Below, one piece after another: positions 17,803 through 49,100 of a stretch of 64,000 nt of DNA. Below the pieces are notes generated by a model that had not been told where the DNA came from, did not search any database, and saw only the letters and a list, made by a program, of their open reading frames with translations. The stretch's first letter is position 1, and each line of letters begins with the position of its first letter. Location: the NCBI GenBank assembly GCA_020724065.1, contig DYHQ01000001.1, forward strand, positions 26,782 to 90,781. The letters run 5' to 3'. The stretch comes from Candidatus Puniceispirillum sp. Lineage in GTDB: Bacteria > Electryoneota > RPQS01 > DYHQ01. Made by a program: the position numbers and the translations under genes.

Positions 17803-17837
17803 TTGAGTAACTCCTTCCGGGAAAAGTGAGCGCCCTT

Positions 17838-18905: not shown

Positions 18906-18908
18906 ATC

Positions 18909-19682: not shown

Positions 19683-19732
19683 AGAGGTCTTTCCTTTCAA
19701 TCGGAATTCGCTTCGTTGCACCAGCCCTTCTT

Positions 19733-21970
19733 TCATTTGATGACAACGAACTTGCCAATATAGCGATCCCAAGGTGTGAACTCGTCCGCTTTGTGTTCGA
19801 CGACATACAGGTAGATGCCGCTCACGATTTCTTGCCTATTTTTGGTGATGAGGTTCCAAGTCTCCTGTTCGGTCCCATTGCAGTGATCGAGAGTGGCCAA
19901 ATGATCTCCCGCCAGGGAGAAAATCTTGATCTTGCATCGCCCCGGCACGCCATTGGCGGGCAAATGCATGAAGTAGAGTTTGCGCGGATATTCAATGAGT
20001 CCCTTCGAGGGATTCACCTCACCGCCAGCTTCGCCAGGGTGAGAGCCCTTGTAGGGATTGGGATAGACATAGATATCGCTCAGGATCGGCGACGCGCCGG
20101 TTGCTTCGGTTCGCACGGTCTTAATCTCTCTGTAATTGCCCGTTCTGGAGGACATCAAGATTCCTGCGCCTTCGACTCCCTTGTCAAAAGCTCTCACCAC
20201 ATAGTAGTAAGTATGACCGGGAATGAGGTCGGTATCATCGAAGTAGTACTGCCCGAGGGAATCAATGTTCGTGGGCATTCCGAGGTTGTAGTTTTGCCAC
20301 TCGAATTCTCCCTCGAGTGTGTCAATGCGATCATAGTAGGCAAGCGCATGCCAATCCTGCTGGTTGAAGGAGCGTTCGATCAGATACCCTTCAAAGTCCA
20401 TGTCCTGCGTGATCGGATCAATGGATTCCTCAGCATTCGGCAACCACGAAATGCGAACCGTATCTGGAGGATGATACCCTACGGTAAAAATCGGCGCATT
20501 TGGTGCCGCAGGGCCTTGAAAATCATTATTGTATAGGCGCAGCGCCCAGTCGGCGTTTTTTGAGCCCTCTGTCGTGTCTCCTCCGGCAATAAAGGCGACT
20601 GTAATCGGGAGCTCCTCGCCCGGCCGAATGATCCATTCTCCTTCACTTGGTCCGAAGCCCAAAAGCATGCGCCAATCCCCCTTTTGCGGCGTGGCCGGAG
20701 CAATAGTACCTGCCGAAATCATGTTGTATTTATCTGCATTCGTTTCGGGGTCGCCGCCAGCCACGCGCTCGAAGTTCGCAAAGGTCACTTCGAGGCTTTC
20801 CAGCGGAACGGGAGTCTGCACCACACGAATGGCGAAGATGCCTGGGGCGGGCCCGTCGTCGTCATTCGGATCATCGTACTGAATCATCATGAGCCGGCCT
20901 GGGTCATAGTAGTTGTAGTCATCAAGGGAGGCCGCATCCCCGCCTTCTCCCCGCGCTCCAATATCGGGATCGGAAAACATGGCCATATAGACATCGCGCA
21001 GGGAAAGCTGCCCGATATTGCGAACTCTGAAATCCAGAAGGATAAACTCGGCTGCATAGTCCTCGGGGTACGCGTAGGTGCGCTGCGAAACCTGGATCTT
21101 GAGAGGGGTATGGCCATCCGCATCGGGGCTGCCTACATAGGTGGCCTCAATGTCGTCTTGATAGACGCAGAAATACTCCTGGACTCCTCGAGCCACACCG
21201 TCTTCGTCAATCTCCCCATCGCCATCGTCGTCCAAAGCCCCGGGGACTTTGTCTCCGTCCAAATCGGGATCTTCAATGTCTACGAGGCCATCGAAGTCAT
21301 TGTCAATGTAGTCGGACGCCATGTCCCCGACGGGATCTTCGTCCATGTGGGTTTCGGGATCGTAGCGCAGATTGCCATCTCCATTGGCGTCCAGACTGTC
21401 TCCGTCCCAATCGGCTGAGGGTTTGCCGTCATTGTCAAGGTCGTCGGCAAGACTCCAATCTCCGTCGTCATCCACACCTTTAGCGCCCTTCACATAGAAT
21501 CGAGGAGGTTCACCCAGTCTCTCGAGCGTCGTTGAAGTGACCACCCAATCGCCAAAATCCGCGGATGAATTCGCCTGAGGATAGGTTCCGATATGGACGG
21601 GATACATTTCGTTCGTTCCATTATCGCCATCGGTGGCCGTCGTAACGAGTCGGCGCTCGTTTGAGATGGCCCCGATCCAGACACCCGAAGAAAACAGGAA
21701 ATCGTTGCCTGAGTTAATGGGGAACTCGAAACCCTTGTACCCGACCGCACCATCGGGATTTCCCTGTTCTCCCCAATTCGCCATGGCCATTCGCACATTC
21801 CCGATATCGTGCATAATCAAAGATTTACGCGCATTGAGATCTGCACTCTGGATAGTCGGAGGCTCGCCGCGGCGCTGCTCAATCACGGTTCGTGCCGAGA
21901 CCAGGACGACGGCGAGGGTTAGAGTGGCCAAGACTCCGGCAACAAAGGGTCTTCCGGAAAGGTTATGCAT
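19733..21970 (-). CDS. T9SS cargo protein with thrombospondin-type-3-like Ca-binding Asp repeats, a fibronectin-III-like region and a C-terminal sorting domain
   Basis: Has a signal peptide. Has DxDxDG runs (DNDGKPSADWDGDSLDANGDGNL, DNDFDGLVDIEDPDLDGD, DDDGDGEIDEDG). The C-terminus is a T9SS CTD (IYVYPNPYKG...GIYLYVVE...KFVVIK). Confidence 0.7.
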   Translation of the reverse strand: MHNLSGRPFVAGVLATLTLAVVLVSARTVIEQRRGEPPTIQSADLNARKSLIMHDIGNVRMAMANWGEQGNPDGAVGYKGFEFPINSGNDFLFSSGVWIGAISNERRLVTTATDGDNGTNEMYPVHIGTYPQANSSADFGDWVVTSTTLERLGEPPRFYVKGAKGVDDDGDWSLADDLDNDGKPSADWDGDSLDANGDGNLRYDPETHMDEDPVGDMASDYIDNDFDGLVDIEDPDLDGDKVPGALDDDGDGEIDEDGVARGVQEYFCVYQDDIEATYVGSPDADGHTPLKIQVSQRTYAYPEDYAAEFILLDFRVRNIGQLSLRDVYMAMFSDPDIGARGEGGDAASLDDYNYYDPGRLMMIQYDDPNDDDGPAPGIFAIRVVQTPVPLESLEVTFANFERVAGGDPETNADKYNMISAGTIAPATPQKGDWRMLLGFGPSEGEWIIRPGEELPITVAFIAGGDTTEGSKNADWALRLYNNDFQGPAAPNAPIFTVGYHPPDTVRISWLPNAEESIDPITQDMDFEGYLIERSFNQQDWHALAYYDRIDTLEGEFEWQNYNLGMPTNIDSLGQYYFDDTDLIPGHTYYYVVRAFDKGVEGAGILMSSRTGNYREIKTVRTEATGASPILSDIYVYPNPYKGSHPGEAGGEVNPSKGLIEYPRKLYFMHLPANGVPGRCKIKIFSLAGDHLATLDHCNGTEQETWNLITKNRQEIVSGIYLYVVEHKADEFTPWDRYIGKFVVIK
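21190..21490 (-). repeat. Asp-rich calcium-binding (TSP3-like) repeat tract inside the cargo gene
   Basis: This stretch encodes DDDGDWS...DNDGKPSADWDGDSLDANGDGN...DNDFDGLVDIEDPDLDGDKVP..DDDGDGEIDEDG. Coordinates are approximate. Confidence 0.5.
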
Positions 21971-21990
21971 GAGCTTCTTTACTCCTCTCC

Positions 21991-24900
21991 TTAGAATTCA
22001 ACTCCGAGGCCCACACGGACAAGTCGTCGGGCATCCCAGGCATCGGGATTCGGTCCCGCTTTGGGATTCAGGCCATAGTTTGGAGAAATATTGTCGTTGA
22101 CATAGCCGGCTCGCCCGTCAAATTCGGAATAGGTATCAATGGTGAAGCGGTTCAGATCCCAGCCAAGAATATTGCGGGCGTTAAAGATATTGCGTATCTC
22201 CAGAAGTAGACGCCAACTCAATTTGCCTATTTTGAATTGCCGCGATGCATCCACATCGGTCGTATAGGACCAAGGCGAGCGTTCCGAGAATTCCAGCCCC
22301 TCGATATCGGTGCCGTTGGCATTCGTCGGCGTGTAGGGCAGACCTGAAAGAGCCTGCGAGAGGATGTTCACACTCCATCCCGTCCTCAACCAAGCGGCCG
22401 AAAACGGCTTGCCCCTTAGCAGGCTGTGTGCGCCGATGTTTGCGACGATGGTGTGCCGGCGATCCCAGGCCAGAGGCGTCTCGCGCTTCGGATCCACATA
22501 GTTGGCTCGCGTGACATCCGACCCAATATCATACGAATTCTTGCCGTTGGCCCATGAAATCGTATAGCTCAAACGCCCCGCAAGGTTCGCTCCATATTGC
22601 TTGGAGACACTGAATTCAAATCCGCGAATCGAGGCATAGTCTGCGTTGTAGTATATTGCTGCGTTTGTGCCAACAATACGCCGACCATAAAGGTCGAAGT
22701 AAAGCTGGTTTTGAGAAGCCGTCTGGATCCAGTTCTTGATGTCTTTGTAATAGGTCGAAACATCCAACAAGAAATCTTTGGCAAACTGGTGACGGACTCC
22801 CAACTCATAGGCAATCGTTTTCATCGGGTCCAGGTTGGGATTTCCAATGATGGGAGTGCCGCCGGTCTGGAGCTGGTTCACCGCCGTAAAATAATAGTCG
22901 AGCCGTGAACGCTGGTAGAAATAGCCGTAGTTGAAATGGAAGACATCCTTCTCGGTCACGCTATAGGAAACGCCAAACCGGGGAGAGAGGTAGACTTTTC
23001 CTTCCTTGGGAGGCGGCTCGTAGTCAATGTAATTCTCCGCTCCTGTCTGAGCAATCGGCTTTTCGATGGTTGAGCCGGCATTCCAGTAGTCCATCCGCAG
23101 TCCCATGTTGACGATGATGTCCCGATATTCCATCTTATCCTGGAGATAAATGGCACCTTGGGACGGGAAGGCATGGTAGACATCCGTGTAGATGCCTTGT
23201 CCTGCATTGTCAATCGTCGGGTAAGGTCGGTCTTCCGCCTTCACATCATAGTAGTTGTATTCGAGCCCGGCTTTGACAAGGTGTCGCGGCGTGACTTGGC
23301 TGGCAAGGTCAAACTTCGCGGTCCAAGTGCCGGACTCGAAGTGTGCCCAGTCGGGAACCAATTGCTGGTAGTTTCCGGCCAGCCCATCGCCAATAATGTG
23401 GAATCCGTTTACATGGTCATAGCTGTTCGAGGGATTGCCGGCGTCATAGAGCCCGTCGCCGTCCTGATCCGAGAAAGGTTCTCCAATGTCGTACCGCTGG
23501 TTGTATTTTCCCAGGGCATTGGGAAGATCCGTGAAGGGTTCACCTGCCGTTCCATATTCGCTTGCAGACTTGTCGGCTCCCGCTAAAGTGCGGCTGGCGC
23601 TGAAAGCGCTGAGTCTGACCGTGTAGAAAGTCTTCTGGTTGACGGTGTGGCTCCAGCCAAGGGATACCTGTTGATCCCGTACGCGGTCGGTTCGTGTGTG
23701 GTCGTTGGCGTTATAGCTGTACGATTGCAGATCCTCGTCAATCAGGCCGTCCAGGTCGTCATCGGCCCAGTTAAGGGCTTCTTCGTCGGTGCGACCATCG
23801 CCGTCATCGTCCTCGCCGAATCGGTTGGCATAGGACGGTGCATCTGAGGCATAGCTTTGGGTGGAGGCCAAGGCCAGCATTCCCAAGGAATCCTCTTCTT
23901 GCGAAAAATCATCCGGGAAAATCCGAGATAGCCGGTACCAATACGGATTCTCCCATTGTTGAGATTGATTCCATCCGAGAGTCACTTTATATGCCTGAGC
24001 GGGGGCGTAGGTCAGTTTCACATTCGACGCGGTGTACGCCTGATTCTTGCGTATGTCCGCTCCGAACAGGTCGGTGACCTGGTGGCGATACCAACGGCTG
24101 GAGTTGATCCAAATGCCGTGCTCATTGGTGTTTCGCGACCGAACATTGCCCGAGGCGAACAGGCTCATGGTTCCGGGAAGGCGTGTGCCAAGACGGGGAA
24201 GAATGTGAGTCGTGATTGGTTCCGGACCCGAGATGGACGCCTCGGAATAGTCATAATCTTGATAATAGCTGTCCCCCGTGTCAAAATCCTTCGCATCGAG
24301 ATCCATCACATGCTGCACTTGTCCGTGGTAAGCTGGTTCGCCTTCGCGGACAACCAGATTCACCACGGCAGACTGCGCTTCACCATATTCGGCATTGTAC
24401 CCTGCCGTAAGGACAATCATCTCGGCGATGGAACCCGACCCAACATCCAGCGAGCGTTGCTGAAATTGCGGGTCCTTGACCTGAAGGCCATCCACCAGAT
24501 AGAGGATTTCGTCTCGACGGCCGCCGCGAATATGGATATTCGTTCCCGTTCCCACAGCACCGGCTGTTGCGGCAAGTGCCTGCTGATAAGTTGTTACAGG
24601 AAGGGCTTCAATTTCTTCCCGAGTAACAATGTGAGTGGACGAGGTGATATCCTTGCGTACGACATCGCGTTCGGCCACAACGGTGACTTCCTCTCCCAGA
24701 AGCACCGTCTGCTCCATCGAAAAGGATTGCTCCGTTGTGAGGTCTTGGACAACCACCACCCCTGTCATGATGATGGTTTTGTATCCGATCGCTGTGGCGC
24801 GCAGGTCACAGGTTCCCGGCAGAACATTGAGAATAAAATATTCGCCGTCAATGTTGGTCGAAGCCCCCTGAGTGGTTCCGACAATAAGGATATTCACTCC

Positions 24901-25029
24901 CGGCAACGGCTCACCGGTCGCCTTGTCTTTGATGACGCCGGCGATCTTTCCGGTGACCGCTCCCATCACCGGCGCACCAAGGACAAAAATGAGCAAGGGT
25001 AAAATCAGAAATAGGATTCGCCTGTTCAC
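21991..25029 (-). CDS. SusC-like TonB-dependent receptor (CarboxypepD_reg domain, plug, beta-barrel)
   Basis: The start was re-chosen as a GTG preceded by AGGAGGT, giving the signal peptide MNRRILFLILPLLIFVLG. Has a CarbopepD_reg domain (GKIAGVIKDKATGEPLPGVNILIVGTTQGASTNIDGEYFI), a plug (THIVTREEIEALPVTT) and the C-terminal ...RVGLGVEF. Acidic DDDGDGRTDEE..DDDLDGLIDED inserts are also present. Confidence 0.8.
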   Translation of the reverse strand: MNRRILFLILPLLIFVLGAPVMGAVTGKIAGVIKDKATGEPLPGVNILIVGTTQGASTNIDGEYFILNVLPGTCDLRATAIGYKTIIMTGVVVVQDLTTEQSFSMEQTVLLGEEVTVVAERDVVRKDITSSTHIVTREEIEALPVTTYQQALAATAGAVGTGTNIHIRGGRRDEILYLVDGLQVKDPQFQQRSLDVGSGSIAEMIVLTAGYNAEYGEAQSAVVNLVVREGEPAYHGQVQHVMDLDAKDFDTGDSYYQDYDYSEASISGPEPITTHILPRLGTRLPGTMSLFASGNVRSRNTNEHGIWINSSRWYRHQVTDLFGADIRKNQAYTASNVKLTYAPAQAYKVTLGWNQSQQWENPYWYRLSRIFPDDFSQEEDSLGMLALASTQSYASDAPSYANRFGEDDDGDGRTDEEALNWADDDLDGLIDEDLQSYSYNANDHTRTDRVRDQQVSLGWSHTVNQKTFYTVRLSAFSASRTLAGADKSASEYGTAGEPFTDLPNALGKYNQRYDIGEPFSDQDGDGLYDAGNPSNSYDHVNGFHIIGDGLAGNYQQLVPDWAHFESGTWTAKFDLASQVTPRHLVKAGLEYNYYDVKAEDRPYPTIDNAGQGIYTDVYHAFPSQGAIYLQDKMEYRDIIVNMGLRMDYWNAGSTIEKPIAQTGAENYIDYEPPPKEGKVYLSPRFGVSYSVTEKDVFHFNYGYFYQRSRLDYYFTAVNQLQTGGTPIIGNPNLDPMKTIAYELGVRHQFAKDFLLDVSTYYKDIKNWIQTASQNQLYFDLYGRRIVGTNAAIYYNADYASIRGFEFSVSKQYGANLAGRLSYTISWANGKNSYDIGSDVTRANYVDPKRETPLAWDRRHTIVANIGAHSLLRGKPFSAAWLRTGWSVNILSQALSGLPYTPTNANGTDIEGLEFSERSPWSYTTDVDASRQFKIGKLSWRLLLEIRNIFNARNILGWDLNRFTIDTYSEFDGRAGYVNDNISPNYGLNPKAGPNPDAWDARRLVRVGLGVEF

Positions 25030-25204
25030 CTCAACACCTCCTGCACTATGGGTTGCTCCGGTCAGTGCATGATTGAATCGCAAGGCTCTTTCGTTCGTCG
25101 CAGTTTGGAATGGATGGAACAAAGAAATTCCGGTCTGGGGCAAGGCAGTCTACCTTGCCCCAGATTCGAGTCACCACAAAAATGAGAGAGTCTTGTCTCT
25201 CGTG

Positions 25205-27214
25205 TTACTTCAGCACAACCATCTTTCGGCTCTCGCTGAAACCGTTGGCCGAAAGCCTGTAGATATAGATGCCGCTGGTTAGATTGGAGGCATCGAACGG
25301 AATCGAATAGGAGCCGGCGTGCAACCGCTCATCGAGCAGCGTCGCCACTTCCTGGCCCAGCGTGTTGTAGACCTTCAGCTCCACCTGAGTCGGCAAGGCC
25401 ACATCGAATTTGATGGTCGTCGTCGGGTTGAACGGATTCGGGAAATTGCCGTAGAGGGTGTAGACGGTCGGCTGTGCCGGATGCGGATAGCGCTTGACAT
25501 CCAACCACACATGGCCGGCAACGACCGCGTGTTCTGCATGTGCCGAGTAGTTCATCACGACATCATAGGCGTCACAATAGAACCAGATGGTGTCGCCGTC
25601 AGCGACCTGAGCACCGTCAAAATGCGTATCCGGAACGGTGAAGTAGTAGGTCCCTGAGAAAGTCTCGGGATCGGTCCATGAATAGCTATCAGGGTTGGCG
25701 TAATTCCATTCGGCTCCGTGAGTATTGCTCATCCAGTTCACCAAGATATTGCCTCCGTCATAGTCAACTCCCGTCGCATCCGAAAAGTCTGCGCTGACGA
25801 CATAGGGGCCGAGGGAAGTGGGAGGTGTGACCAATGTCTGATTGGCAATCACGGGACCCTCGAGGTCCGACTGTCCATATTGAGCGCAGAAAGTGATATA
25901 GGCCACGCCCATTTGGCCGCCATCCAATTGGCACTGCTCAATGAAACCGCCGACCAAGCCATCTTCGAAAATGTCCCAGAGCTTCCAGCCGCCGGCCCAA
26001 GTGGCTCCGCCGTCGGTCGAGTAGTTCACCCAGAGCCCTTCCGGAGTAAACTGACCCCAGACATTGCACATCGCGATTGCATTACTGCCACTGAAATAGC
26101 CTTGGTGCACATAGAGAAGGTCGCGGGTTCCGTCATACAGGAGGGAATCAAGGAAGGTTCTTCCCGTCCAAGAGCCTCCGTTGTAGCCGAGTTCGTCGAA
26201 GGCATACCAATTCTTGTGGTAGGCGCCGGTCGCAGGAACGCCGGCGTTGGAGAATATCCACGGCATTTGACCTGTGGGGTCAGCCGCCGAGGATGGATAG
26301 CGCTGCGCACCGGCAATCGTGGAGCCGCCGAAAGTCGAGCCTTGATCCATTGACAAATAGACGGCTGTTGCCGATACATCCGAGTTTCGGAAGCAGCCGA
26401 AGAGGGCGTTGTTGTCCACATCATAGGCCATGGGCATACAGGCTCCAATGTAGTAGCTGTATTCGGTTCCGGAGTAGTCATTTGGGTCGTAGATGGTCGC
26501 CGTGCCCGCCATGGATGTTGGGAAGCGAGCGAAGTATTGGTTGCGATCCCCGTCCGCATCCTGGAAAATGAAGAAGAAGTTGTTGGCGCTCGCCTTCTCC
26601 GCCAAGTGCGGATACTGGGCTGTTGCATGAATGGTTGGCTCGGTCGCCACTACGACCAACGCACTCCAGTTTGCGCCATGATCCGTGGACTTGGAGGCCC
26701 AGAAGGTCGTATTCTCACGGGCATCTGTTCCCCATATGAGGCAGTACAGATTGCCGGAGGGGTCAATGGCCGCACTCGCCCAGGAGAAGGTGTTGGTTCC
26801 CTGAGCGGCGATGAGTGTCTCCACCCAGTCTGTTCCGCCATTCGTCGTGTGGACATCGTAGACTCCGTCGTCTGCGGCGCTTGCATGGGTGTTGATTACC
26901 CCGAAGTAATGGAGATTGTTCTGATCATCGCACAGGCTGCCGAAGTCATACATCTCGGAGTTCCAACCTGTCAGATCGGACAAGTCCCCCGCCTGCCGGA
27001 TATCGGACCAGGTGTGACCATAGTCGGTGGTTTTCACATACCGATACTGAATTTCATTCTGATCAAGGTGTCCGTTCCCTTGGCAGGGTAGCCGGACAGC
27101 CTTTTCATGGTTCCCAGGAAGGGCCTTCGGATTGGGGAGAGCCCAAGCAGAAACGACAAGCATCAAACCGATTCCCAGAGCCAGCGCGAGGAAGATGGTT
27201 CCTTTTTTGGTCAT
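25205..27214 (-). CDS. BNR/Asp-box (sialidase-like) repeat protein with a T9SS C-terminal sorting domain. It is the first gene of the minus-strand operon.
   Basis: Has a signal peptide. Has multiple SxDxGxTW Asp-boxes (TTDYGHTWS, STDHGANWS, SMDQGSTFG, STDGGATWA). The CTD is FPNPFNPTTTIKFDV...KVYNTLGQEVATLLDE...GIYIYRLSA...MVVLK. Confidence 0.75.
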   Translation of the reverse strand: MTKKGTIFLALALGIGLMLVVSAWALPNPKALPGNHEKAVRLPCQGNGHLDQNEIQYRYVKTTDYGHTWSDIRQAGDLSDLTGWNSEMYDFGSLCDDQNNLHYFGVINTHASAADDGVYDVHTTNGGTDWVETLIAAQGTNTFSWASAAIDPSGNLYCLIWGTDARENTTFWASKSTDHGANWSALVVVATEPTIHATAQYPHLAEKASANNFFFIFQDADGDRNQYFARFPTSMAGTATIYDPNDYSGTEYSYYIGACMPMAYDVDNNALFGCFRNSDVSATAVYLSMDQGSTFGGSTIAGAQRYPSSAADPTGQMPWIFSNAGVPATGAYHKNWYAFDELGYNGGSWTGRTFLDSLLYDGTRDLLYVHQGYFSGSNAIAMCNVWGQFTPEGLWVNYSTDGGATWAGGWKLWDIFEDGLVGGFIEQCQLDGGQMGVAYITFCAQYGQSDLEGPVIANQTLVTPPTSLGPYVVSADFSDATGVDYDGGNILVNWMSNTHGAEWNYANPDSYSWTDPETFSGTYYFTVPDTHFDGAQVADGDTIWFYCDAYDVVMNYSAHAEHAVVAGHVWLDVKRYPHPAQPTVYTLYGNFPNPFNPTTTIKFDVALPTQVELKVYNTLGQEVATLLDERLHAGSYSIPFDASNLTSGIYIYRLSANGFSESRKMVVLK

Positions 27215-38772: not shown

Positions 38773-41700
38773 ATGCAACTTCTTTCGATAGAATTGTCCG
38801 GATTCAAGTCGTTTCCCAAGCCGACGAAGATTGCGTTTGCACCCGGCGTTACTTCGATTGTTGGACCCAACGGATGCGGGAAAACGAATATTGTGGACGC
38901 GGTGCGTTGGGCTTTGGGTGAACAGAAAACTTCCGTCTTGCGCTCCGAGCGGATGGACAATGTCGTTTTCAATGGAACGGCGACACGCAAACCTCTGGGG
39001 ATGGCGGAGGTGAGCATAAACATCAACAATAGCGACGGCGGGTTGCCAACGCCTTATGCTGAAGTGGAAATCAAGCGTCGAATTTACCGCGATGGAGGAG
39101 GCGAGTATTTTCTAAATGGCGAGTTGTGTCGCCTGAAGGATATTGTCGAGCTGCTTCAGGATACCGGCATGGGGCCGGACAGCTACAGCATTCTTGAGCT
39201 TCGCATGGTCGAAGAGATTCTGCGCGAGGGAGGAGACGGGCGGCGCCATCTTTTTGAAGAGGTGGCTGGAGTTGCCAAATATAAATCGCGCCGCCAGCAG
39301 GCACAAAATAAGCTCAGCCAGACAGACGAAGATCTGAAACGCTTGGCCGACATTCTGACGGAAGTTGACCGCCGGGTCTCGTCGTTGAAACGTCAGGTGG
39401 CGCGCGCCCGGCGGTATCAGAAACTTGAGGCTGAAATGGCATCGGCTGAGCTCAGCATCCTGTGGCGCAGCTACGAGAGATTTCAAACGGAGCTTGCCCC
39501 TCTGGAACAGGAGATGAAACGCAGCGCCGATTCGTCTCTTACTGTGCGCAGTCTCTTGCGAGTCGAAGAAGCCCAACTGGAACAGCTCCGGACTGACGCT
39601 CTCGCCGCGGAGAAAGCGCTGGCGCAGATTCGCGCTGCTCTGGAAATCTGCGTCTCTGAAATAGCCGCCTTGGAAACCGAGAATGCGACGCTGGACACGC
39701 GAGCCAACGCCGCGCGCGACACGATTAGCCATTCGGAACGAACACGAATCCTGTTAGAAGAGAAACAAGGGGTTCTCGCGCGGAAGAAGGAGTCTCAAGA
39801 GAGCGAAAGACAGAGATTGACCAAGGCTCTGCAGGCCGCCGAAAGTGAACTTGCCACAGCTCAAAAGGAGTATGAAGAGCAAGAGAAAACGCTCGAGGAG
39901 ATTCTCTACCGTGCTCGCCATCACGATAAACATTCGGCAAGTCTCCGCGCCGATGTGACAGCAAAAGGACGGCAGCTTTCAGAGAAAGAAACGGCATGGG
40001 CAAGCTTGACGGGCCGGCGGGAGACCCATCAACAAGAACTCGCGCAAATGGCGGAGCAGACGAAAGCTTTGGAGGCTCAGGCCGGGCAGGCGACAAAGCG
40101 AGAGACCGAGCTTCAAGAGACATTCGTGAAACTCCAACAGGACGAGGCGGCGCTTCAGCAGCGACACAGAACCCAAACTGAGAGTATTCAAAGTAAAGAG
40201 GAGAGTCTTCGAGCATTGCAGCAGGCGATTGACTTGGCGGCCAATCAAATCGAAATGCTGAAGACACTCTATGAGAGGGGCCCGCGCTCGAATCCCGCTC
40301 TGAAGTTTCTCCGTCAGCAGCGGGTCGCCGGACTCGTGGAGCTCCTGGGTGATGCTCTGGATGTGCCTGAGACTTATTCGCGTGCTTTCGAGGCTATCTT
40401 GGGTCCGGCGGCCTATTACTACCTTGTCGAATCCAGCGAGACCGCTTTTGAAGCGATTGAAGCGTTGCGGCAGTCGGGAGCAGGGCAAGCCGTTTTCGTA
40501 CCCATTCGCGATCTTCAGCAGTCGGAGATACCTCAGCCGACACTGCCCGAGGGAACCTTGGGACGCGCCATAGATTTCTTGAATGGACGCCTTGATGACC
40601 CCATCGCGTGCCACTTTCTCGGGAAGGTGGTTATTGTCAAGGATTGGGCGACGGTCTGCGCGCTTCAGGTCTGGGGCAAAGAAAATGATTTGACGCTCGT
40701 CAGTCTGGATGGCGAATGGATCACGCCTGAGGGCGTCATGTGCGGTGGCGCGGCCGCGATGAAAGTGCCGGCCGACTTCGGATTGAAGAGGCAGATTTCG
40801 CTTCTGAGGCAGAGACTTGATGAATCGCGTGCGAACTTGGCGAAGGCCAGTAGTGCTCACGCTGAACTTCTCACGCAGCGTACCTCGATTGACCAAGAAC
40901 TAATGAAAATCCGAGAGCGAATCGCTTCCTTTGGGAATGAACTTACCCATTTGCGTGAAAGCCGGCTTCAGAGATGCGCTCTTCAGGAGCACCTGCAGAA
41001 TCGCCAAGCGACGATTGAGACCGAATTAGCGACATTGATTGCAGCTATTGAATCGGCAAGCGGCGGGATTCAAACGGATTCGCGCGCTCTGGCGGAGGCG
41101 CAGGAGCGATTGGACAAGGCCGTTTCATCGGGTAGCGATTTGGAGAAAGAAATGGCTGCGGCGCGTCGGCAGTCTGCTCTTGTGAAAGAGAAATTTCATC
41201 GCGCCGAGCGACAGCACGATGATGCGAAGCATCGGCTGCAGATCGCCGAGCTCGAGCTGCAAGGCATTGTCAATTCCTCAGGAGAGATTCTCGCCGAGCT
41301 TCAAGCAAGTGAGCAGCGAGCGACACAAGCCGCGAAGGAAGAAGGCGAAATCGCGCACCGCAAGAGCGAAGTCGAAGCACAGCTTCTGGAGAAATTCCGC
41401 AAGAGAGACGCAGTTTCTTCTGCGCTGGATCGGCAAAATACACATCTGGACGAGGCGCGAGGAAAGGTGCGAGAGCAGGAAGACAAGCTGCGGACCCTCC
41501 GCGCGGGACGAGAAGAAGGCTTGGAGGGAGAGCGCAAGCTCGAGCGAGAAATCACACGCCTGCAAGCCGAACGCGACGCCCTGGTGACTGGTGCCCGCAG
41601 CAAGTACGTCTTGGACCTGTCCTCTCCCGATTTTGCGGCGACGCATCCCGAGATTGTTTCAGCCGAGGTGGCTGAGCAAACGGTTGCTGACTTGGCCGTG

Positions 41701-42306
41701 AAAATACAACAGTTGGAACCCGTCAATCTTCTGGCGATTGAGGAGTTCGAGCAGGAGAATGCGCGGCTGCAAACTATGGTCGCCAACCGCGACGACCTCC
41801 TGAAAGCCAAGGCAACTCTCGAAGAGACGATCTCAAGGATCAACGAAACGGCGCAATCAAGATTCCTGGAAACCTTCGGAAAGGTTCGGGCCAACTTCCA
41901 GAAACTGTTCAGGGAGTTTTTTGGAACGGGTGAGGCAGATCTTATTCTTAGCGGGACGGATCTCTTGGAGGCGGATGTCACGCTTTGGGCGAATCCCTCA
42001 GGAAAACGGTTGAAGTCGCTTTCTCTGATGTCGGGAGGAGAGAAGGCGATGACGGCCATCGCGCTGCTCTTTGCTCTGTATCAAGTAAAACCATCGCCTT
42101 TTTGCATTTTGGACGAGGTGGATGCACCTCTGGACGATGCGAATATTGTCCGTTTCAATGAGATGATTCGGCGTCATTCTGAGGAAACACAGTTTATTCT
42201 TGTCACCCACAACAAGCGGACGATGGAGGCCGCGGATACCCTGTGGGGTGTGACCATGGAGGAAGACGGGGTCTCGAAAGTTGTGTCCGTTCGTTTGCTT
42301 GCTTAG
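38773..42306 (+). CDS. smc: Chromosome segregation protein SMC
   Basis: Has an N-terminal Walker A (GPNGCGKTNIVDAVRWALGEQ), long coiled coils, a hinge, and the C-terminal LSGGEK..DEVDAPLD. Length is 1177 aa. Confidence 0.9.
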   Translation: MQLLSIELSGFKSFPKPTKIAFAPGVTSIVGPNGCGKTNIVDAVRWALGEQKTSVLRSERMDNVVFNGTATRKPLGMAEVSININNSDGGLPTPYAEVEIKRRIYRDGGGEYFLNGELCRLKDIVELLQDTGMGPDSYSILELRMVEEILREGGDGRRHLFEEVAGVAKYKSRRQQAQNKLSQTDEDLKRLADILTEVDRRVSSLKRQVARARRYQKLEAEMASAELSILWRSYERFQTELAPLEQEMKRSADSSLTVRSLLRVEEAQLEQLRTDALAAEKALAQIRAALEICVSEIAALETENATLDTRANAARDTISHSERTRILLEEKQGVLARKKESQESERQRLTKALQAAESELATAQKEYEEQEKTLEEILYRARHHDKHSASLRADVTAKGRQLSEKETAWASLTGRRETHQQELAQMAEQTKALEAQAGQATKRETELQETFVKLQQDEAALQQRHRTQTESIQSKEESLRALQQAIDLAANQIEMLKTLYERGPRSNPALKFLRQQRVAGLVELLGDALDVPETYSRAFEAILGPAAYYYLVESSETAFEAIEALRQSGAGQAVFVPIRDLQQSEIPQPTLPEGTLGRAIDFLNGRLDDPIACHFLGKVVIVKDWATVCALQVWGKENDLTLVSLDGEWITPEGVMCGGAAAMKVPADFGLKRQISLLRQRLDESRANLAKASSAHAELLTQRTSIDQELMKIRERIASFGNELTHLRESRLQRCALQEHLQNRQATIETELATLIAAIESASGGIQTDSRALAEAQERLDKAVSSGSDLEKEMAAARRQSALVKEKFHRAERQHDDAKHRLQIAELELQGIVNSSGEILAELQASEQRATQAAKEEGEIAHRKSEVEAQLLEKFRKRDAVSSALDRQNTHLDEARGKVREQEDKLRTLRAGREEGLEGERKLEREITRLQAERDALVTGARSKYVLDLSSPDFAATHPEIVSAEVAEQTVADLAVKIQQLEPVNLLAIEEFEQENARLQTMVANRDDLLKAKATLEETISRINETAQSRFLETFGKVRANFQKLFREFFGTGEADLILSGTDLLEADVTLWANPSGKRLKSLSLMSGGEKAMTAIALLFALYQVKPSPFCILDEVDAPLDDANIVRFNEMIRRHSEETQFILVTHNKRTMEAADTLWGVTMEEDGVSKVVSVRLLA

Positions 42307-42315
42307 AGGTTGGTC

Positions 42316-43761
42316 ATGATGAAACCAATAAGGACTATCGGGGGTACCGCCATGTGGTTCATAGGATTGCTTCTCTTGCTTTCCCTTATGGGGCAAGCAC
42401 GCCCAGCGGAAGCGGGCTTGGCCATTGACCTGGATTACGCGTGCTTCCGCGGGCGCGATTCACTTGTTTATGTCGAGGTGTTCGCCTCGGTGCAGCGTTC
42501 ACAGCTTGTGTATGCTCAAACCGATTCGGGACTCGCCGCTCGGTTTCGGCTTGCCATGAGCATGGTGCGGAGTGGCGAGGTCATAGCTTCGGACACGCTT
42601 CAAGGCTTTGACATGGTTACCGATTCCAGTGAACTCAGGGCCGGTCAATTCTTCCCGTATGTGTTCGCCTTCTATTTGAAACCTGGGCACTATGAGGCTC
42701 AAGCCGATCTGGAAGATGAGACGAGTGGAGTCAGCGAACGCAAGACCGTTTCGACAGTCATCGAACAGGCCTCCACGGATTCGTTGGCGATGTCCGATAT
42801 CGAACTGGCCTGCCTTGTCGAAAAAACGGACGAAGTCTCACGGTTCTGGAAAAACGGCTTTCGCGTTCTTCCTAATCCGGTACGATTCTATGGAACGCAA
42901 CTGCCGCTTTTTTATTATTATTGTGAGTTGTACAACTTCAGATTCTTTCCTGATTCTCCTGACAGCTTCATGATTCACCGGCAGATTCGAGCGGCCGAAA
43001 CGGGGACGGTGGTCCGCTCGTTGCCAGCTCGCGTCAAGAAGAAGGCCGGAGCAACCGCGGTCGAGGCTGACGGATTTCCCATTACGACCTTAAGTACGGG
43101 CACCTACAGCTTTGAAATCCGTATCACCGACCTCTACGACAATTGCGTGGCTGAAGAAGTCAAGAAGTTCTGGGTGTATCGCCCGGAGGATTTTGAAGCG
43201 GGTCGCAGAACAGCGACGGATTCGCTTTTTGTTGGACGGCTTGCTGAGTTCGCACAGCCTGCGGCAGACATCGAGAATGCGGAAGTTGCGCTGGAGCAGA
43301 TGCGCCATATCCTGACGGCGGATGAGATTGCTCGTGTCCGGAGGCTGACTCCCGAGGGGAAAGTCCAGTTCTTGCGAGAGTATTGGGAGCGCGTGGCTCA
43401 GCCGGAAGGGATAACCCCCGAGCTTGCGCGATGGAAATACTTCAGCCGTATTGAAGAGGCCAATCGGCGATTTTCATACCTGAAAAAGGAAGGTTGGAAG
43501 ACAGACCGCGGTCGCGTCTACGCCCAACTGGGGCCCCCGGATTTGGTGGATTATCGCACGGCGCAGGAAGACACACCGGACCATGAAATCTGGTACTATG
43601 ACAAAATCGAAGGAGGCGTGCAATTCGTCTTCGCCGATAAGTCCGGCTTTGGGGACCTGGAGCTTGTGCACTCGACGAAGCGTGGCGAGATTTCCGATCT
43701 CAACTGGCTCAAGACACTGAGTGGGCGGCCGTTGGACGAACGAACGAGACTCTCACAATGA
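42316..43761 (+). CDS. Secreted GWxTD-domain protein
   Basis: Has a signal peptide. The C-terminus has GWKTDRGRVYAQLGPPD (a GWxTD motif). The start was set at the ATG preceded by GAGG. Confidence 0.6.
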   Translation: MMKPIRTIGGTAMWFIGLLLLLSLMGQARPAEAGLAIDLDYACFRGRDSLVYVEVFASVQRSQLVYAQTDSGLAARFRLAMSMVRSGEVIASDTLQGFDMVTDSSELRAGQFFPYVFAFYLKPGHYEAQADLEDETSGVSERKTVSTVIEQASTDSLAMSDIELACLVEKTDEVSRFWKNGFRVLPNPVRFYGTQLPLFYYYCELYNFRFFPDSPDSFMIHRQIRAAETGTVVRSLPARVKKKAGATAVEADGFPITTLSTGTYSFEIRITDLYDNCVAEEVKKFWVYRPEDFEAGRRTATDSLFVGRLAEFAQPAADIENAEVALEQMRHILTADEIARVRRLTPEGKVQFLREYWERVAQPEGITPELARWKYFSRIEEANRRFSYLKKEGWKTDRGRVYAQLGPPDLVDYRTAQEDTPDHEIWYYDKIEGGVQFVFADKSGFGDLELVHSTKRGEISDLNWLKTLSGRPLDERTRLSQ

Positions 43762-44510
43762 ACTCCACCGCGCAAATTGTCACTGAAGGACTCTCGAAGA
43801 CTTACTATGACAGTCGCCGTGGGGCTATTCATGCGGCGGTTGACATTGGCATTGCGTGCAGCGCCGGCGAGGTTTTTGGGCTTTTGGGAACCAATGGTGC
43901 TGGCAAGACGACGACCCTGCGCATGCTGTCAACGGTTCTGCAACCAACCAGCGGGAGGGCATGGGTGGCCGGTTTTGAGGTTAGCGAGAATCCTCAAGCA
44001 ATTCGGGAGCGTATCGGATTTCTCTCGAGCGATACGGGCATCTATGGCCGTCTGACGGCGCGGGAGATGATGCGTTATTTCGGGCAACTTTGTGGGATGC
44101 CTTCCGAGATGATTGAGAGGCGTGTTGAAGAGATTAGCGCTCGTTTTGATATGAAGGAATTTCTCGACAGCCGTTGTGAAAAACTTTCCAGCGGTCAAAG
44201 GCAGAGAGTCTCGATTGGGCGCACGATTATTCATGACCCACCGGTGCTGATCTTAGACGAACCCACCGCAGGGCTGGATGTCCTGGCGGCAGCGGAAATC
44301 GTTCGTTTTATCCATCAAGCGCGTTCTGAAGGCCGATGTGTTCTTCTGTCCACGCATATCATGCGCGAAGCGGAGAAACTGTGTGACCGGATTGCCATTC
44401 TCCACGAGGGGCGCATTCAAGCCTGTGGACCTCTGGACCAGCTCTATCAAAGCATGCAAACGACTGATCTTGAAGAGGTCTTCATGCACGTTGTCGGGAT
44501 GGCCGTGTAG
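43758..44510 (+). CDS. ABC transporter ATP-binding protein (single gene, no permease adjacent)
   Basis: Walker A is [10 protein letters not shown], signature is LSSGQRQR, Walker B is [11 protein letters not shown]. The start overlaps the GWxTD gene stop (ATGA). Confidence 0.8.
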
Positions 44511-44616
44511 TCTATTGGCAACCCTGTTGGCACTTATTTTGCTCGTTAAGTCGGTGGAATAGAAATGTCTATCCAAGCAACGCCGGTAAGCTCAATGATG
44601 AAGAGGAGAGCAAAGG

Positions 44617-45828
44617 ATGTCTCCAACGCAATCTGAACACTACAAGCTCTTGGTCATAGACGATGATAAGGCAATTCTTGCCTTCCTGCAGGAGAGTTTT
44701 TCACGCGACGGGTATCAAGTGTATCTTGCCGCGACGCTCGCCGAGGCTCGCGCTCTCCTGGCTCGGCATGAAGTCCATGTGGTTCTGTCCGACCAGAATC
44801 TTCCGGACGGGAACGGAGTTGATTTCTTGGCGGAATTACACGGGACGGGTATCGAAGCGATTCCGATTTTGATGACCGGTTATGCTGACCTGAACATCGC
44901 TCTGGATGCGATTAATCGCGGCAAGGTTTACAAATTTGTAAGAAAGCCGGTGGACCATATCCTCCTGAAGCAGATTGTCCAAAGGGCGGCGGAGCATTAT
45001 GCGTTGCTTGAGGAGAAGAAGCGTTTGGCTAGTGAGGTACTTCGTTACAACGAGCTTCTTCGTCGAGATTCGGAGCTCCAATCCCGTGACCTCAAGTCGG
45101 CTCACTCAAAGATTCAGAAACACAGTCAAACGCTGCGCAAGCAGAAAGAGCAAATTGAAACGCTTTACACTGAAATTCAATCGGCCTATCTTCACACGGT
45201 GACTTCCTTGTGCGTGGCGATCGAGGCAAAGGATTTATACACGCGGGGTCATAGCGACCGCATCTATTACTATTGCACGCTTACTAGCCGACGCCTCGGA
45301 TTGGACAATGCGAGTTTTGAGGAACTGAAGCTGGCTGGCGTTCTTCATGATATTGGGAAGATCGGCATTCCGGATAGCATCCTGCGAAAGACCTCGGCAC
45401 TCACCGAATCCGAACATGCCATGATTCGCACGCACCTTGATTTTGCGGACAAAATCCTCATGCCGCTTCCCTTTCTGGAAAAAACACGGCGCATTGTGAG
45501 ACAACACCATGAGCGGTATGATGGAACAGGCTATCCGGATGGTCTGAAAGGGGAAGAGATTTCGATCGAAGGCCGCATTTTGGCCGTCGCCGATGCCTAC
45601 GATGCGATGCGTTCTAATCGCTCGTATCGAAATGCCCTCACGATGCGGGCGGCTTTTGATCAATTGGAAGCGGAGTCCGGCAAGCAATTCTGCCCATTGT
45701 GCGTTGCGGCTCTGCGCACGGGTATTAGCGAAGAGGGAGAGTATCCTCAGGCTGCGCAAGCGTCCGCTCCCTCCTTGCCGCCGCCCCAAGCAAAACCCTC
45801 CCGCCTGCGCTCAAGAGTCTCACATTGA
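44617..45828 (+). CDS. Response regulator with a REC receiver domain and an HD-GYP phosphodiesterase domain (orphan: no histidine kinase adjacent)
   Basis: The receiver is LLVIDDDKAIL..VVLSDQNLPDGNG. The HD-GYP domain has HSDRI, LHDIGKIGIPD and HHERYDGTGYPDGL. An AGGAGAG ribosome-binding site precedes the start. Confidence 0.8.
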   Translation: MSPTQSEHYKLLVIDDDKAILAFLQESFSRDGYQVYLAATLAEARALLARHEVHVVLSDQNLPDGNGVDFLAELHGTGIEAIPILMTGYADLNIALDAINRGKVYKFVRKPVDHILLKQIVQRAAEHYALLEEKKRLASEVLRYNELLRRDSELQSRDLKSAHSKIQKHSQTLRKQKEQIETLYTEIQSAYLHTVTSLCVAIEAKDLYTRGHSDRIYYYCTLTSRRLGLDNASFEELKLAGVLHDIGKIGIPDSILRKTSALTESEHAMIRTHLDFADKILMPLPFLEKTRRIVRQHHERYDGTGYPDGLKGEEISIEGRILAVADAYDAMRSNRSYRNALTMRAAFDQLEAESGKQFCPLCVAALRTGISEEGEYPQAAQASAPSLPPPQAKPSRLRSRVSH

Positions 45829-45928
45829 GCACCTAACACCCTGATTATCAGGAAATTGGGGGACGGGGATTCACCGGTTGCGCCGGAACGCTGGGTGGCA
45901 GTTGGACCGGCGGCTTGCACGAATGGGC

Positions 45929-45957
45929 TTGACTTTCTGAGTTTATTTTTGTAGAAT
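45929..45957 (+). promoter_or_regulatory. Sigma70-like promoter upstream of the porU-like gene
   Basis: TTGACT, 17-nt spacer, TAGAAT. Coordinates are approximate. Confidence 0.5.
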
Positions 45958-46160
45958 TTAAAACATCAGACGGCTTGCCAGGAGATAAATGCCCCTTCCT
46001 TAAGAGGATTTTTGAGTCGGGAATTCGATTTCAAAGACTACATCCTCCGTCGTTACCTCTTCCGGCAGGGCGCTATCTCCTTTCAAGTTTCTTGCGACCG
46101 AATGATTCAGGTAACGAATGTTCGGTTTTTTTGTTGTCAACCGTCGGGAACTACTCATTT

Positions 46161-49100
46161 ATGCGATACGGATGGATTGTCGCTCTTCTCGGTCTTCCGC
46201 TGATTCTCTTCGCCAGTGCGCTGGAAATCGAGGTGTCAAACTCGACGATGTGCCGATTCGCCTATGCGCCGGGACCGGCCACGGTGCATGCGGATACGGT
46301 GAGAGCTGGAGCATTAGTGCGCGAATGGATGGACACGGATGAAACCGTTGCGGGTGGACTCCGACAGCCAGTCCGGCATGTGTATGTTGTGTTACCGCCC
46401 AAGGCAGTGCCCGTTCTGGAAACTGGCGATTTGCAGACCCATTGGGAATCCGGAGGGCTTGCCGCTCCTGACCCGACTTGGCCTGAAATGACTGGGCGGG
46501 CGACGCCCGAGAGTTTCGCGAAGCTTGTCGAGGAATTCCGCTGGCGGGATTTTCGGCTCGCTCATATAGAAATCTATCCCGTCCGAGAGTGGGGTGGAGG
46601 CGCCAACCTGCTGGAGAGAGTGCGTTGCACCATTCAGTTCGTGGGCGGGCAAATATCCGGGCAACCACCGCGGGATTTGCAGATTCTGTCGAGATTGGCT
46701 GTCAATGGAGGTATCGGGGCGACTTGGTGGGAAGCGCCCGTGCGCCGGCCCGAAAGAACGAGTTCGACCTGGCCCGAAGGAGACCTCTACAAAATATCTG
46801 TTCGTGAAACAGGCCTGTACCGGGTATCAGGTGAATGGCTTCAATCGCACGGAGTCAATTTCATCGGACAAGCAACGCGCAAGCTTCACCTCTTGGGAAA
46901 CGGAGGTCATCTGTTGCCGCGAGACTTCAACCGCGCGCGGGATACGCTTTTCGTTGAAGACGCTATTTGGGTCGAGGATGGTGGCGATGGAAACTTCGAT
47001 CCAGAGGACTACTTCATTTTTTACGGGCAAGGACTGAAGGGTTTCGATTATATTGACGGAGATTCGTACCATCTGTACGAATTGGCCCATCACAGTCCCT
47101 ACTCGCAGGACAATGCCTATTTTGTGCAGTATGATGCCAATGGGCCGGATGGGTTGAGGATGCCTTCACTTCCTGCCGGTTCGGTGGGAGGGCAACCGGT
47201 CACCGGAACGCGGGGTCGAGTGGTGCGCGACGATGACCTTTTCATTTTCAACACGGATGCTTTCAGTGAGTCGGGTCTTGTCTGGTTTATGGCGACTGTT
47301 GCTCCGGGAGATGTGCGCTCGTTCGTGACCACACTGCCCGGAGTCACCGATGGTTCGGGGCGCATGAAATTGGATTTCAAGGTTCGCGGCAGTGGCAGTC
47401 CCAAGCTCACCATTTCTGTGAACGACTCGATTCTCTTGGAGAACTACTATAGTGAGTTTGCCTTTGAGATTGCCTTTTCTTCCGGTGTGCTTGTTCCAGG
47501 GTCAAACAACCTCACGATTGAGAACACGGGGAATCAATCTACCTTGCTGAACTTCATCGAGTACGATTATGCGAGGGATTTGTCGTCCAGCGGTGGGGAG
47601 CTTTTCTTCGAAGCTCCCACGAGCACAACGGGACTATATCGCTATGAACTGCCGGATCTGACTGCTCCCCACGTCATTGATATTACAGATCCACTTCATC
47701 CTCGAATGGGTCGCTCCAATATTTTCGTAGATAGTTCATGGGTGGATATGCCTCGGCAGTACTACGCTTGTTCCCCTGAGCGCCTGCGCACAGCGCAGTG
47801 GGTGGGGAAGGATATTCATGAAACGGAAGACTACGACATCCTGCGCCGTGCCGGCCGACAAACCGATATGATTATCATCATACCGGATGAATGGTTCGAT
47901 ATGCTCGCGCCCTTGAAAACCTTTCACGAGAGCCATGCGGAAGAGCCTCTCACCGTCATCCGGGTGAGACTGAGCGACATCTACGATGAGTTTGCATGGG
48001 GAAATAGCGATCCCGTGGCTATTCGAGACTTCCTCCATTACGCGTTCGCAAATTGGCGTGGCTCTGACGGAGCCCAAGAAGCGCCTCGCTATCTAGTGCT
48101 CGTGGGCGATGGGAATTACGACTACCGAAATATTCTGCTGACCTCGGATCATAACTGGATGCCACCGTGGGAGAAAGACGGAGATTGTTTCGACGACTTC
48201 TACTCGGAATTCGGGGGTCCACTACCGAATCTGTACACAGGCCGTCTGCCGGTTCAGTCGTCCACCGAACTGCAAGTGACCCTCGACAAAATCACTCAAT
48301 ACGGAGGAAATCCCCTATATGGTCCTTGGAAGAACACTGCAACTTTTGTCGCGGACGACGAGTATAAAAACGGTTGCAAGTCTGGTGAACATGTTCATAC
48401 CGAGGACTCGGAGGAGATTCTGAAGGCCGTTTTGCCCTCGTATTTCACTTTCAAGAAAATCTACGAAATCTTTTATCCATTTCGGTCGAGTCCTACCGGT
48501 GGATTCAAACCCGACGCGACGCGCGATCTGCTCGAATGTATAAACCGTGGGACGCTCATCGTCAACTACATGGGACATGGGAATCCCGAGGTATGGTCCG
48601 ACGAGCAGGTCTTTGTTTCGGGCAGAGACAGTCCGCTTATCGAAAACGGGCGCATGTTGGGCTTCTTTGTTGCCGCGACCTGTAGCTGGGGTCAATTCGA
48701 TACACCCCTTCTGCGCTGCCACCCCGAAGTGCTCATGGCCAAGTTCGGCGCAGGTGCGATCGGTGCTCTGGCCGCCACTCGTTTCACCACGCCGATCAGC
48801 AATAATGCTCTGCTCATTTGGTTCTATGATTCGCTGTTCGAGCAGCGATGGCCTCGGACTTCTCTGGGAGAGGCGCTCTTTCTTTCCAAGGGAGTCTCGC
48901 AGTCGAACTCCGAGCGGTATCATCTCTTCGGTGATCCCGCTTTGCGCCTCGCGACTCCTGAGGGGAGCGCGCGCGTCACCCAGCTTTCATCGGATTCCCT
49001 TCAAGCGCTTTCACTCTTTACAATTGAGGGAGAGGTTTTGCGGGACACCGTACAGCTTTGGGAGGATTTCGCCGGGATCGTGGAAGCGAGAGTCTATGAC

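Follow-up and report, generated by a model that had tools for sequence, protein, structure and literature searches.

Does an orphan response regulator that is encoded immediately upstream of a type IX secretion system (T9SS) sortase gene control that secretion system? The question is raised by a 64,000-nucleotide stretch of contig DYHQ01000001.1 (hereafter the window, in whose coordinates all unlabelled positions are given), where a 403-aa protein with a receiver (REC) and an HD-GYP domain (44617-45828, + strand) precedes porU, and where a first-pass annotation had proposed that this protein might be a T9SS regulator resembling PorX of Porphyromonas gingivalis. Our answer, which we hold with moderate confidence, is that the protein is an ordinary RpfG-type regulator that would form its own sigma-54 transcription unit at the end of a cassette encoding a GWxTD protein and an ATP-binding cassette (ABC) ATPase, and that porU would belong to a separate, attenuated operon.

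Pfam scans assign Response_reg (PF00072, 62.9 bits), HD_5 (PF13487, 147.8 bits) and HD to the regulator. Its REC domain (~44647-44982, + strand) carries the phospho-acceptor Asp59 (44791-44793) and is followed by a helical linker and the HD-GYP domain (~45220-45690, + strand), in which the HD and GYP motifs occupy 45346-45351 and 45529-45537, respectively. Both motifs are intact, as the first-pass annotation had stated, and in an alignment of 35 orthologs the whole receiver and catalytic residue set is present: D16, D59, T87 and K110 of REC are invariant, as are H212, H244-D245, H273, H297-H298-E299, G303/G305/P307, D326 and D329 of the HD-GYP domain, and Y306 of the GYP motif is conserved in at least 90%. 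With these residues in place, and with V-cGAP3, PmGH and PA4781 as its nearest solved relatives, the protein is predicted to be a phospho-accepting HD-GYP phosphodiesterase, as had been proposed. The best NCBIfam model is NF053512, a NosR-family response-regulator phosphodiesterase of cyclic diguanosine monophosphate (c-di-GMP); its score of 276.2 bits lies under the cutoff of 400, which places the regulator outside that family. Database searches recovered an ortholog group of about 90 clusters, ~400-430 aa in length and from 92% down to 42% identity, with a sharp boundary past which scores drop to other HD-GYP architectures; the source labels of these orthologs include KSB1, Zixibacteria, 'Bacteroidetes bacterium' and 'bacterium SM23_57'. 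Labels of this kind, together with the Calditrichota label of some GWxTD relatives, make an uncultured member of the Fibrobacteres-Chlorobi-Bacteroidetes (FCB) group the probable source of the window. Judged by its sequence, the regulator appears to be an ordinary RpfG-type two-component response regulator and a phospho-activated cyclic-dinucleotide phosphodiesterase. An unlinked kinase or acetyl phosphate would phosphorylate Asp59, and the phosphorylated receiver would switch on the HD-GYP domain, probably via the helical linker and dimerisation; hydrolysis of c-di-GMP, or possibly of 3'3'-cyclic GMP-AMP (3'3'-cGAMP), would then lower the cellular pool.

The ranking of the solved relatives raises the alternative that the regulator is a phosphodiesterase like V-cGAP, with a specificity for 3'3'-cGAMP instead of c-di-GMP. 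In a profile search, V-cGAP3 (5Z7C, 3e-63) outscores the c-di-GMP enzymes PmGH (4MCW, 1e-48) and PA4781 (4R8Z, 5e-35), as this specificity would lead one to expect. Overall similarity, however, does not predict the substrate specificity of HD-GYP domains, JGI annotations and NCBIfam place the relatives with RpfG-type c-di-GMP phosphodiesterases, and no cGAMP synthase was seen in the window; we therefore consider cGAMP specificity unlikely. A feature that does set the family apart lies at its C-terminus, where QFCPxC replaces the canonical QFDPx[V/L/I]V; in the window this is the CPLC motif at residues 359-362 (45691-45702, + strand). Of 72 paralogs from other phyla, 64 have D at the third position of the canonical motif and none (0/72) has both cysteines. 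The CxxC pair is a possible redox switch and could make the phosphodiesterase redox-sensitive.

As a statement of family membership, the description of this protein as PorX-like does not hold: the regulator combines REC with HD-GYP, and the Pfam scan finds HD_5 and HD but no PglZ. PorX joins its receiver to a PglZ domain with a Zn-dependent alkaline-phosphatase fold, and P. gingivalis is without any HD-GYP or EAL proteins (PMC9757075). Beyond that paper, the literature that we searched holds nothing on control of porU by HD-GYP proteins or c-di-GMP. What can be asked is whether the two regulators have a comparable role, and for this the organization of the locus and its conservation in relatives have to be considered.

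We examined 11 regulator contexts obtained by exact-protein look-up and 15 orthologous metagenome loci, all annotated by tblastn. The latter were retrieved by scanning metagenome contigs with an alignment of the linker only; the full-length regulator alignment had proved unusable as a contig query, matching generic HD-GYP motifs and yielding at least 80 loci that were all paralogs (29-49% identity) from unrelated phyla. In the window, gatA, gatB, smc, the GWxTD gene, the ABC ATPase gene, the regulator gene, porU, a porV-family gene, a gene for an M6-like cargo protein and an Omp85/TolB-propeller gene form one co-directional array on the + strand. Pfam and NCBIfam scans, together with reading of the sequence, located the genes and features of the first-pass annotation where it had placed them. 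It had likewise correctly reported that there is no histidine kinase near the regulator: a scan of the open reading frames (ORFs) in the window that measure 180 aa or more and were considered probable genes found no HisKA/HATPase protein, and none of the clade A-D and F contexts has a histidine kinase within 10 kb of the regulator.

Directly upstream of the regulator gene we identified a promoter of the sigma-54 (RpoN) type, TGGCAC-N5-TTGC, at 44528-44542 (+ strand), 18 nt past the ABC ATPase stop codon and 75 nt before the regulator ATG. In the window it reads TGGCACTTATTTTGC, a perfect consensus with the -24 GG and -12 GC correctly spaced, and it is the only perfect match on either strand of the 64 kb. 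When 12 loci were aligned, TGGC-N6-TTTGC was the sole conserved element of the spacer between the ABC ATPase and regulator genes, the flanking intergenic sequence not being conserved, and the GG-N10-GC core of this element occupies the homologous intergenic position in 15/15 loci of clades A, B, C and F, compared to ~0.85 matches to the relaxed core expected by chance per 64 kb. The element is absent before the regulator in clades D and E. In the window, the regulator gene is thus probably its own transcription unit, one that would be expressed only when an enhancer-binding activator is on; a promoter of this kind would make the regulator itself a regulated output.

The porU operon appears to be organized separately. 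Its best sigma-70-type match within the 9.5 kb searched (42000-51500) is TTGACT-17-TAGAAT at 45929-45957 (+ strand; 10/12 positions), which starts 100 nt past the regulator stop codon, as the first-pass annotation had stated. That annotation had also placed the regulator directly upstream of porU; the two are indeed neighbours, but porU does not begin straight after the promoter, its ATG being at 46161, 332 nt past the regulator stop. The spacer is ~320-350 nt in related loci, and the TTGAC and TA...T of the promoter are invariant in 11 aligned loci. Since the regulator has a sigma-54 promoter, and porU its own sigma-70 promoter and a leader that bears a terminator, the two genes do not belong to a single unit. 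The data are best accounted for by three transcription units: (gatAB-)smc-GWxTD-ABC; the sigma-54 promoter and the regulator; and the sigma-70 promoter, leader and terminator followed by porU, porV, the cargo gene and the Omp85 gene.

Between its promoter and porU lies a leader of ~170 nt that comprises, in order, a box, a variable hairpin, a 3' strand complementary to the box, and an intrinsic terminator. The structured core (45979-46078, + strand) is a long hairpin, P0-P1-P2, that closes the variable P3. The box, GGAG-N4-ATG-CCCCTTCCTTAAGAGG, makes up the 5' strand of this hairpin, with the consensus GGAG-N4-ATG-CCCGTTCGGTAGAGG and the sequence GGAGATAAATGCCCCTTCCTTAAGAGG in the window, from 45981. 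Within this strand is a possible mini-ORF of four codons (ATG CCC CTT CCT TAA; 45989-46003, + strand) that begins 4 nt past the invariant GGAG, a potential Shine-Dalgarno (SD) sequence, and whose bases double as the 5' strand of P1/P2. The GGAG, the ATG and the in-frame stop of this putative mini-ORF are kept in 11/11 leader loci (the window, L089, L001, L169, L002, L170, L171, L085, L091, L092 and L093), with the predicted peptides MPLP, MPVR, MTVR, MSIR and MPV. The terminator (46095-46135, + strand) has a ~12-bp stem followed by seven T and ends 25 nt before the porU ATG; a hairpin and T-run are found in all 11 loci, and the distal stem varies by lineage yet stays complementary (TTC/GAA, GCC/GGC, GGC/GCC). 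As there is no conserved promoter between the terminator and porU, expression of porU would depend on read-through of the terminator. The simplest reading of this arrangement is that the porU operon is attenuated, with the terminator, which would have to be read through before porU and porV are expressed, a candidate control point for T9SS biogenesis.

Several comparisons support the leader as a distinct element. Searched against 410 kb, a covariance model of the core (R1) matched the 11 porU leaders and nothing else (E 3e-9 to 1e-4), and nhmmer run over all loci returned the same 11 sites. Individual minimum free energy folds share the P1-P2-P3 hairpin in 11/11 leaders (z-scores -0.2 to -2.6), and pairing extends to 82% of cells in the model-made alignment, compared to 42-55% in slid registers. 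One locus, L085, has three compensatory changes, which appear only if a register with a 1-nt bulge is allowed; its perfect 7-mer complement has a chance probability of ~0.001. With formal covariation weak, one pair showing double-sided change and 72/500 shuffles reaching the covariation score, and with the L085 changes needing the bulge register, the structure is plausible rather than proven. In our view the leader is a candidate for a new RNA element that regulates the T9SS sortase operon in cis.

Such a leader offers one route by which the regulator could act on its neighbour. In this alternative, the regulator would be a functional analogue of PorX, and a nucleotide signal (c-di-GMP, pGpG or GMP) set by its phosphodiesterase activity would control the adjacent porU-porV operon, with the porU leader serving as a riboswitch-like sensor or with a c-di-GMP-binding transcription or antitermination factor in between. 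The conserved structured leader and terminator that appear to gate the operon fit this idea, as does the lack of any terminator between the regulator and the leader. Other observations speak against it. None of the 4227 families of Rfam 15 matches it at gathering thresholds in the window, and three leaders gave no match to a c-di-GMP riboswitch (GEMM-I/II) or to another relevant family at E up to 10. No consistent antiterminator was found either: leaders folded without the terminator 3' arm give no consistent partner for the 5' arm. A candidate was considered in clade C, where the P1 5' strand (CGTTCGGT) is identical to the 3' arm of the terminator and pairing to its 5' arm is conceivable; this candidate was rejected when it failed in the window's clade. 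Furthermore, clade D keeps porU downstream of the regulator without this leader; three of its four loci have a similar promoter, TTGACA-17-TATCTT, followed by a different leader with no T-run. The effects of c-di-GMP are, in addition, mostly global.

A more elaborate version of this idea combines the new features of the locus: the leader and terminator (45979-46135) would constitute a new RNA class, either a riboswitch or a mini-ORF attenuator, that gates the T9SS sortase operon in response to a signal (c-di-GMP, pGpG or GMP) set by the sigma-54-driven HD-GYP regulator. We offer this as a long shot; if true, it would amount to a PorX-independent second-messenger circuit for type IX secretion in uncultured phyla of the FCB group. 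A putative attenuator before porU at least gives the PorX-like idea a concrete test.

The adjacency itself can be assessed in relatives, which was the check suggested by the first-pass annotation, and the outcome is divided. Among 21 related contigs, 15 have a porU-porV pair after the regulator, with regulator identities of 44-92% by tblastn; porU comes directly after the regulator in 11 of these (48-92% identity) and after an inserted gene in the four of clade D. The insert encodes a 54-aa Trm112/YcaR-like zinc-ribbon protein (L003 11317-11481; also L096, L097 and L099). In the six contigs of clade E, which are Zixibacteria-like and have regulators of 42-46% identity, porU-porV is absent downstream. 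Synteny ends precisely at the junction of the regulator and porU: the regulator is followed instead by a spermine-synthase-like gene and a GH57 gene, or by glutamate synthase, and remains after the break with the GWxTD, ABC ATPase and ABC-2 permease genes. This break is the only rearrangement that we saw, and it parts the regulator from porU.

The upstream side of the regulator is more deeply conserved. A housekeeping block, psd-pssA-purS-purQ-(tatCA)-(gatAB)-smc, is common to all loci, and smc-GWxTD-ABC stands upstream of the regulator in 20/20 loci with enough DNA. Because the smc|GWxTD junction is conserved better than that between the regulator and porU, the latter is weak evidence, no deeper than background synteny, and a PorX-like role in T9SS control currently rests on just this adjacency. 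Taking the 15 adjacent contigs and the nucleotide-phosphodiesterase output of PorX on one side, and the sole rearrangement, the background synteny and the lack of homology to the PorX PglZ domain on the other, we find a PorX analogue doubtful.

In all four long loci of clade E, a histidine kinase and a sigma-54 enhancer-binding response regulator are encoded 6-9 kb downstream of the HD-GYP regulator (L004 19928-21230, L086 17016-19867, L087 19251-21233 and L088 16857-19714). This pair is a possible source of the kinase and activator input, one that would be unlinked in the window's lineage.

The deepest genomic tie of the regulator is to the GWxTD-ABC(-permease) cassette, which in its fullest form consists of the GWxTD gene, the ABC ATPase gene, a YihY/BrkB gene, an ABC-2 permease gene and, as terminal gene, the regulator. 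The GWxTD gene (42316-43761, + strand; ORF 42310-43761) encodes a secreted protein with an N-terminal signal peptide that passes the models TIGR04514 (86 bits, cutoff 28) and PF20094 (64 bits, cutoff 26.9); the ATG at 42316 is its likely start, as a 100% identical protein (P0121) begins there. Among 59 homologs, G395, D399, G401 and R402 of the motif are invariant and W396, T398 and R400 are conserved in at least 90%. An AlphaFold model (pLDDT 88) comprises the signal peptide, two beta-sandwich domains and a C-terminal alpha/beta GWxTD domain; its fold matches in the PDB are generic tandem Fn3/Ig structures only, such as RbmA, and a sequence profile search of the PDB gave no match. Full-length orthologs reach the Bacteroidota at ~27-30% identity, relatives are also labelled Calditrichota, and neither GWxTD, PF20094 nor TIGR04514 is mentioned in the searched literature.

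The ABC ATPase gene (43758-44510, + strand; PF00005, 108 bits) encodes an ABC-2-type, DrrA/NatA-like protein. Its best NCBIfam matches are DrrA (225 bits) and GldA (166 bits), both under cutoff, and an identity as GldA was rejected on the score against TIGR03522 (cutoff 402.6). Its start overlaps the GWxTD stop by ATGA, as first noted, and co-transcription of the two genes is probable. The pair is probably also co-transcribed with smc (38773-42306, + strand), the upstream neighbour of the GWxTD gene, in an odd pairing whose adjacency is kept throughout the 20 loci. The sequence shows gaps of 6 nt between gatB and smc and of 9 nt between the smc stop and the GWxTD start; with the 9-nt gap, evidently unrelated genes too are tightly spaced in this array.

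The first-pass annotation had described the ATPase as single. That is accurate for the window's lineage, in which no permease is adjacent, but in more distant relatives there is an ABC-2 permease partner. Clade D has a YihY/BrkB gene between the ATPase and regulator genes, and clade E adds the ABC-2 permease with or without YihY; the window's lineage has lost both (44511-44616 in the window, compared to L004 7414-9959 and L086 8739-9959). The clade E permease has 406 aa, scores 409-419 bits with NF041647, just below its cutoff, and is without the CPBP protease half of that model. It ends ~40 nt before the regulator, a gap that suggests co-transcription in that clade. The likeliest functional partner of the regulator would be this module, with its envelope or export function, or else the global pool of c-di-GMP, and not porU specifically.

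It could also be argued that the position of the regulator is purely inherited synteny, and that its regulon is global or unrelated, with no functional tie to either neighbour. The long housekeeping block (psd to smc) conserved in all clades, the sigma-54 promoter of the regulator and its orphan status would all be expected if this were so. The linkage to GWxTD and ABC is nevertheless invariable, surviving even the rearrangement, and the closely spaced permease of clade E suggests co-transcription there; we treat pure synteny as a tentative possibility.

Our preference for an RpfG-type regulator that ends the GWxTD-ABC cassette, with porU in a separate attenuated operon, has to be set against several observations. 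As the window's lineage is without the permease and YihY genes, and as a separate promoter serves the regulator, the link to the cassette is historical and not demonstrably functional here. The cassette may itself be T9SS-related, because in a Bacteroidota metagenome-assembled genome (MAG; L172 217-11365) the GWxTD gene comes directly after a PorV/PorQ-family gene, in a cluster with genes for a C-terminal domain (CTD) protein, a SusC-like protein and an unknown protein; this arrangement would also suit a PorX analogue. Adjacency of the regulator and porU persists over 44-92% identity and through the clade D insertion, which is compatible with selection for proximity, and its loss in clade E is a single evolutionary event.

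In the same Bacteroidota MAG, genes for a lipid A acyltransferase and a heptosyltransferase of the lipopolysaccharide core follow the GWxTD gene. Its arrangement gives a single hint that the GWxTD module may be linked to the outer membrane or the T9SS. A 1205-aa protein of L172 was considered as a PorU and rejected, the common region being only the C-terminal part that resembles a sorting domain.

The genes downstream of the leader constitute a recognizable T9SS block. porU (46161-50027, + strand) encodes a sortase of 1288 aa (NF033707, 646.1 bits, cutoff 420; PF01364 Peptidase_C25, 241.5 bits) whose ATG is followed by a signal-peptide-like N-terminus, and orthologs are found in 15 contigs. 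The next gene (50129-51175, + strand) encodes a porV-family outer-membrane protein (NF033709, 278 bits, cutoff 90; PF19572, 95.6 bits) that scores 207 bits with the PorV equivalog model NF033710 (cutoff 250). It is followed by a predicted T9SS cargo protein (51225-54227, + strand), an inactivated, M6-like metalloprotease that carries FG-GAP repeats and, at its C-terminus, a sorting domain (Por_Secre_tail, 31.9 bits; NF052323, 428 bits, under the cutoff of 600). The Omp85/TolB-propeller gene (54122-57328, + strand; PD40, Omp85 and TolB propeller), whose start is uncertain and overlaps the previous gene, is the last conserved gene of the block; in every locus of clades A-D and F it follows the M6-like gene.

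Along with this block, the window contains a second T9SS-like cluster on the - strand (15964-27214), comparable to the cluster that ends in GWxTD in the Bacteroidota MAG. It encodes a CTD cargo protein (25205-27214, - strand), a SusC/TonB-like protein (21991-25143, - strand), a PorV/PorQ-family paralog (17838-18905, - strand), two unknown proteins and an unknown 626-aa protein. The latter, encoded after the second PorV-like gene, was examined as a relative of GWxTD and discarded (hhalign probability 0.5%). A Lamin-tail-domain protein with a CHU_C T9SS sorting signal (70-1002, + strand) is a further T9SS cargo protein, and its gene is directly followed by that of an ABC-F type ATPase with a double ABC domain (999-2957, + strand).

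To our knowledge, what is understood of T9SS regulation comes almost entirely from Porphyromonas and Flavobacterium and involves PorX, PorY and SigP; for the lineages with this locus, which are KSB1-, Calditrichota- and Zixibacteria-like, we know of nothing on the subject. Collectively, our analysis weakens the original proposal of a T9SS regulator and leaves a routine RpfG-type enzyme in its place, while the conserved sigma-54 promoter, the porU leader with its terminator and the family-specific CPxC motif are new and testable. It also draws attention to the GWxTD family, which is linked to ABC export and lies near PorV-family genes in two phyla.

Among known systems, the closest counterparts of the regulator are RpfG of Xanthomonas and PA4781, with which it shares the same two-domain architecture, the receiver Asp/Thr/Lys residues, the H..HD..H..HHE..D metal ligands and the GYP motif, as well as a predicted mechanism of phospho-activated c-di-GMP hydrolysis. 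Unlike RpfG, which sits with RpfC, it has no adjacent cognate kinase, and it differs from RpfG-type proteins in its QFCPxC motif, its sigma-54 promoter and a context of GWxTD-ABC upstream and porU downstream. Its nearest solved HD-GYP domain is that of V-cGAP3, a 3'3'-cGAMP phosphodiesterase of V. cholerae; only query positions 184-369 align, the N-terminal region differs and REC is unmatched, and substrate preference is not transferable. PorX and the regulator are both orphan receiver-domain proteins with a nucleotide-phosphodiesterase output, predicted in the case of the regulator; PorX binds the c-di-GMP linearisation product pGpG (PMC9757075), and the regulator adjoins core T9SS genes. The PglZ/alkaline-phosphatase effector of PorX is, however, unrelated to HD-GYP, and PorX works via SigP, promoter binding and PorL. 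An analogy of function only, with the T9SS tuned by a regulator that is a nucleotide phosphodiesterase, is conceivable. The porU leader, in turn, resembles the terminator-containing 5' leaders of riboswitches and attenuators in having a promoter, ~100 nt of conserved structured RNA and an intrinsic terminator directly before the first gene; no conserved antiterminator was found in it, and it departs from the known examples in matching no Rfam family and in the conserved SD sequence and putative four-codon mini-ORF embedded in its 5' strand.

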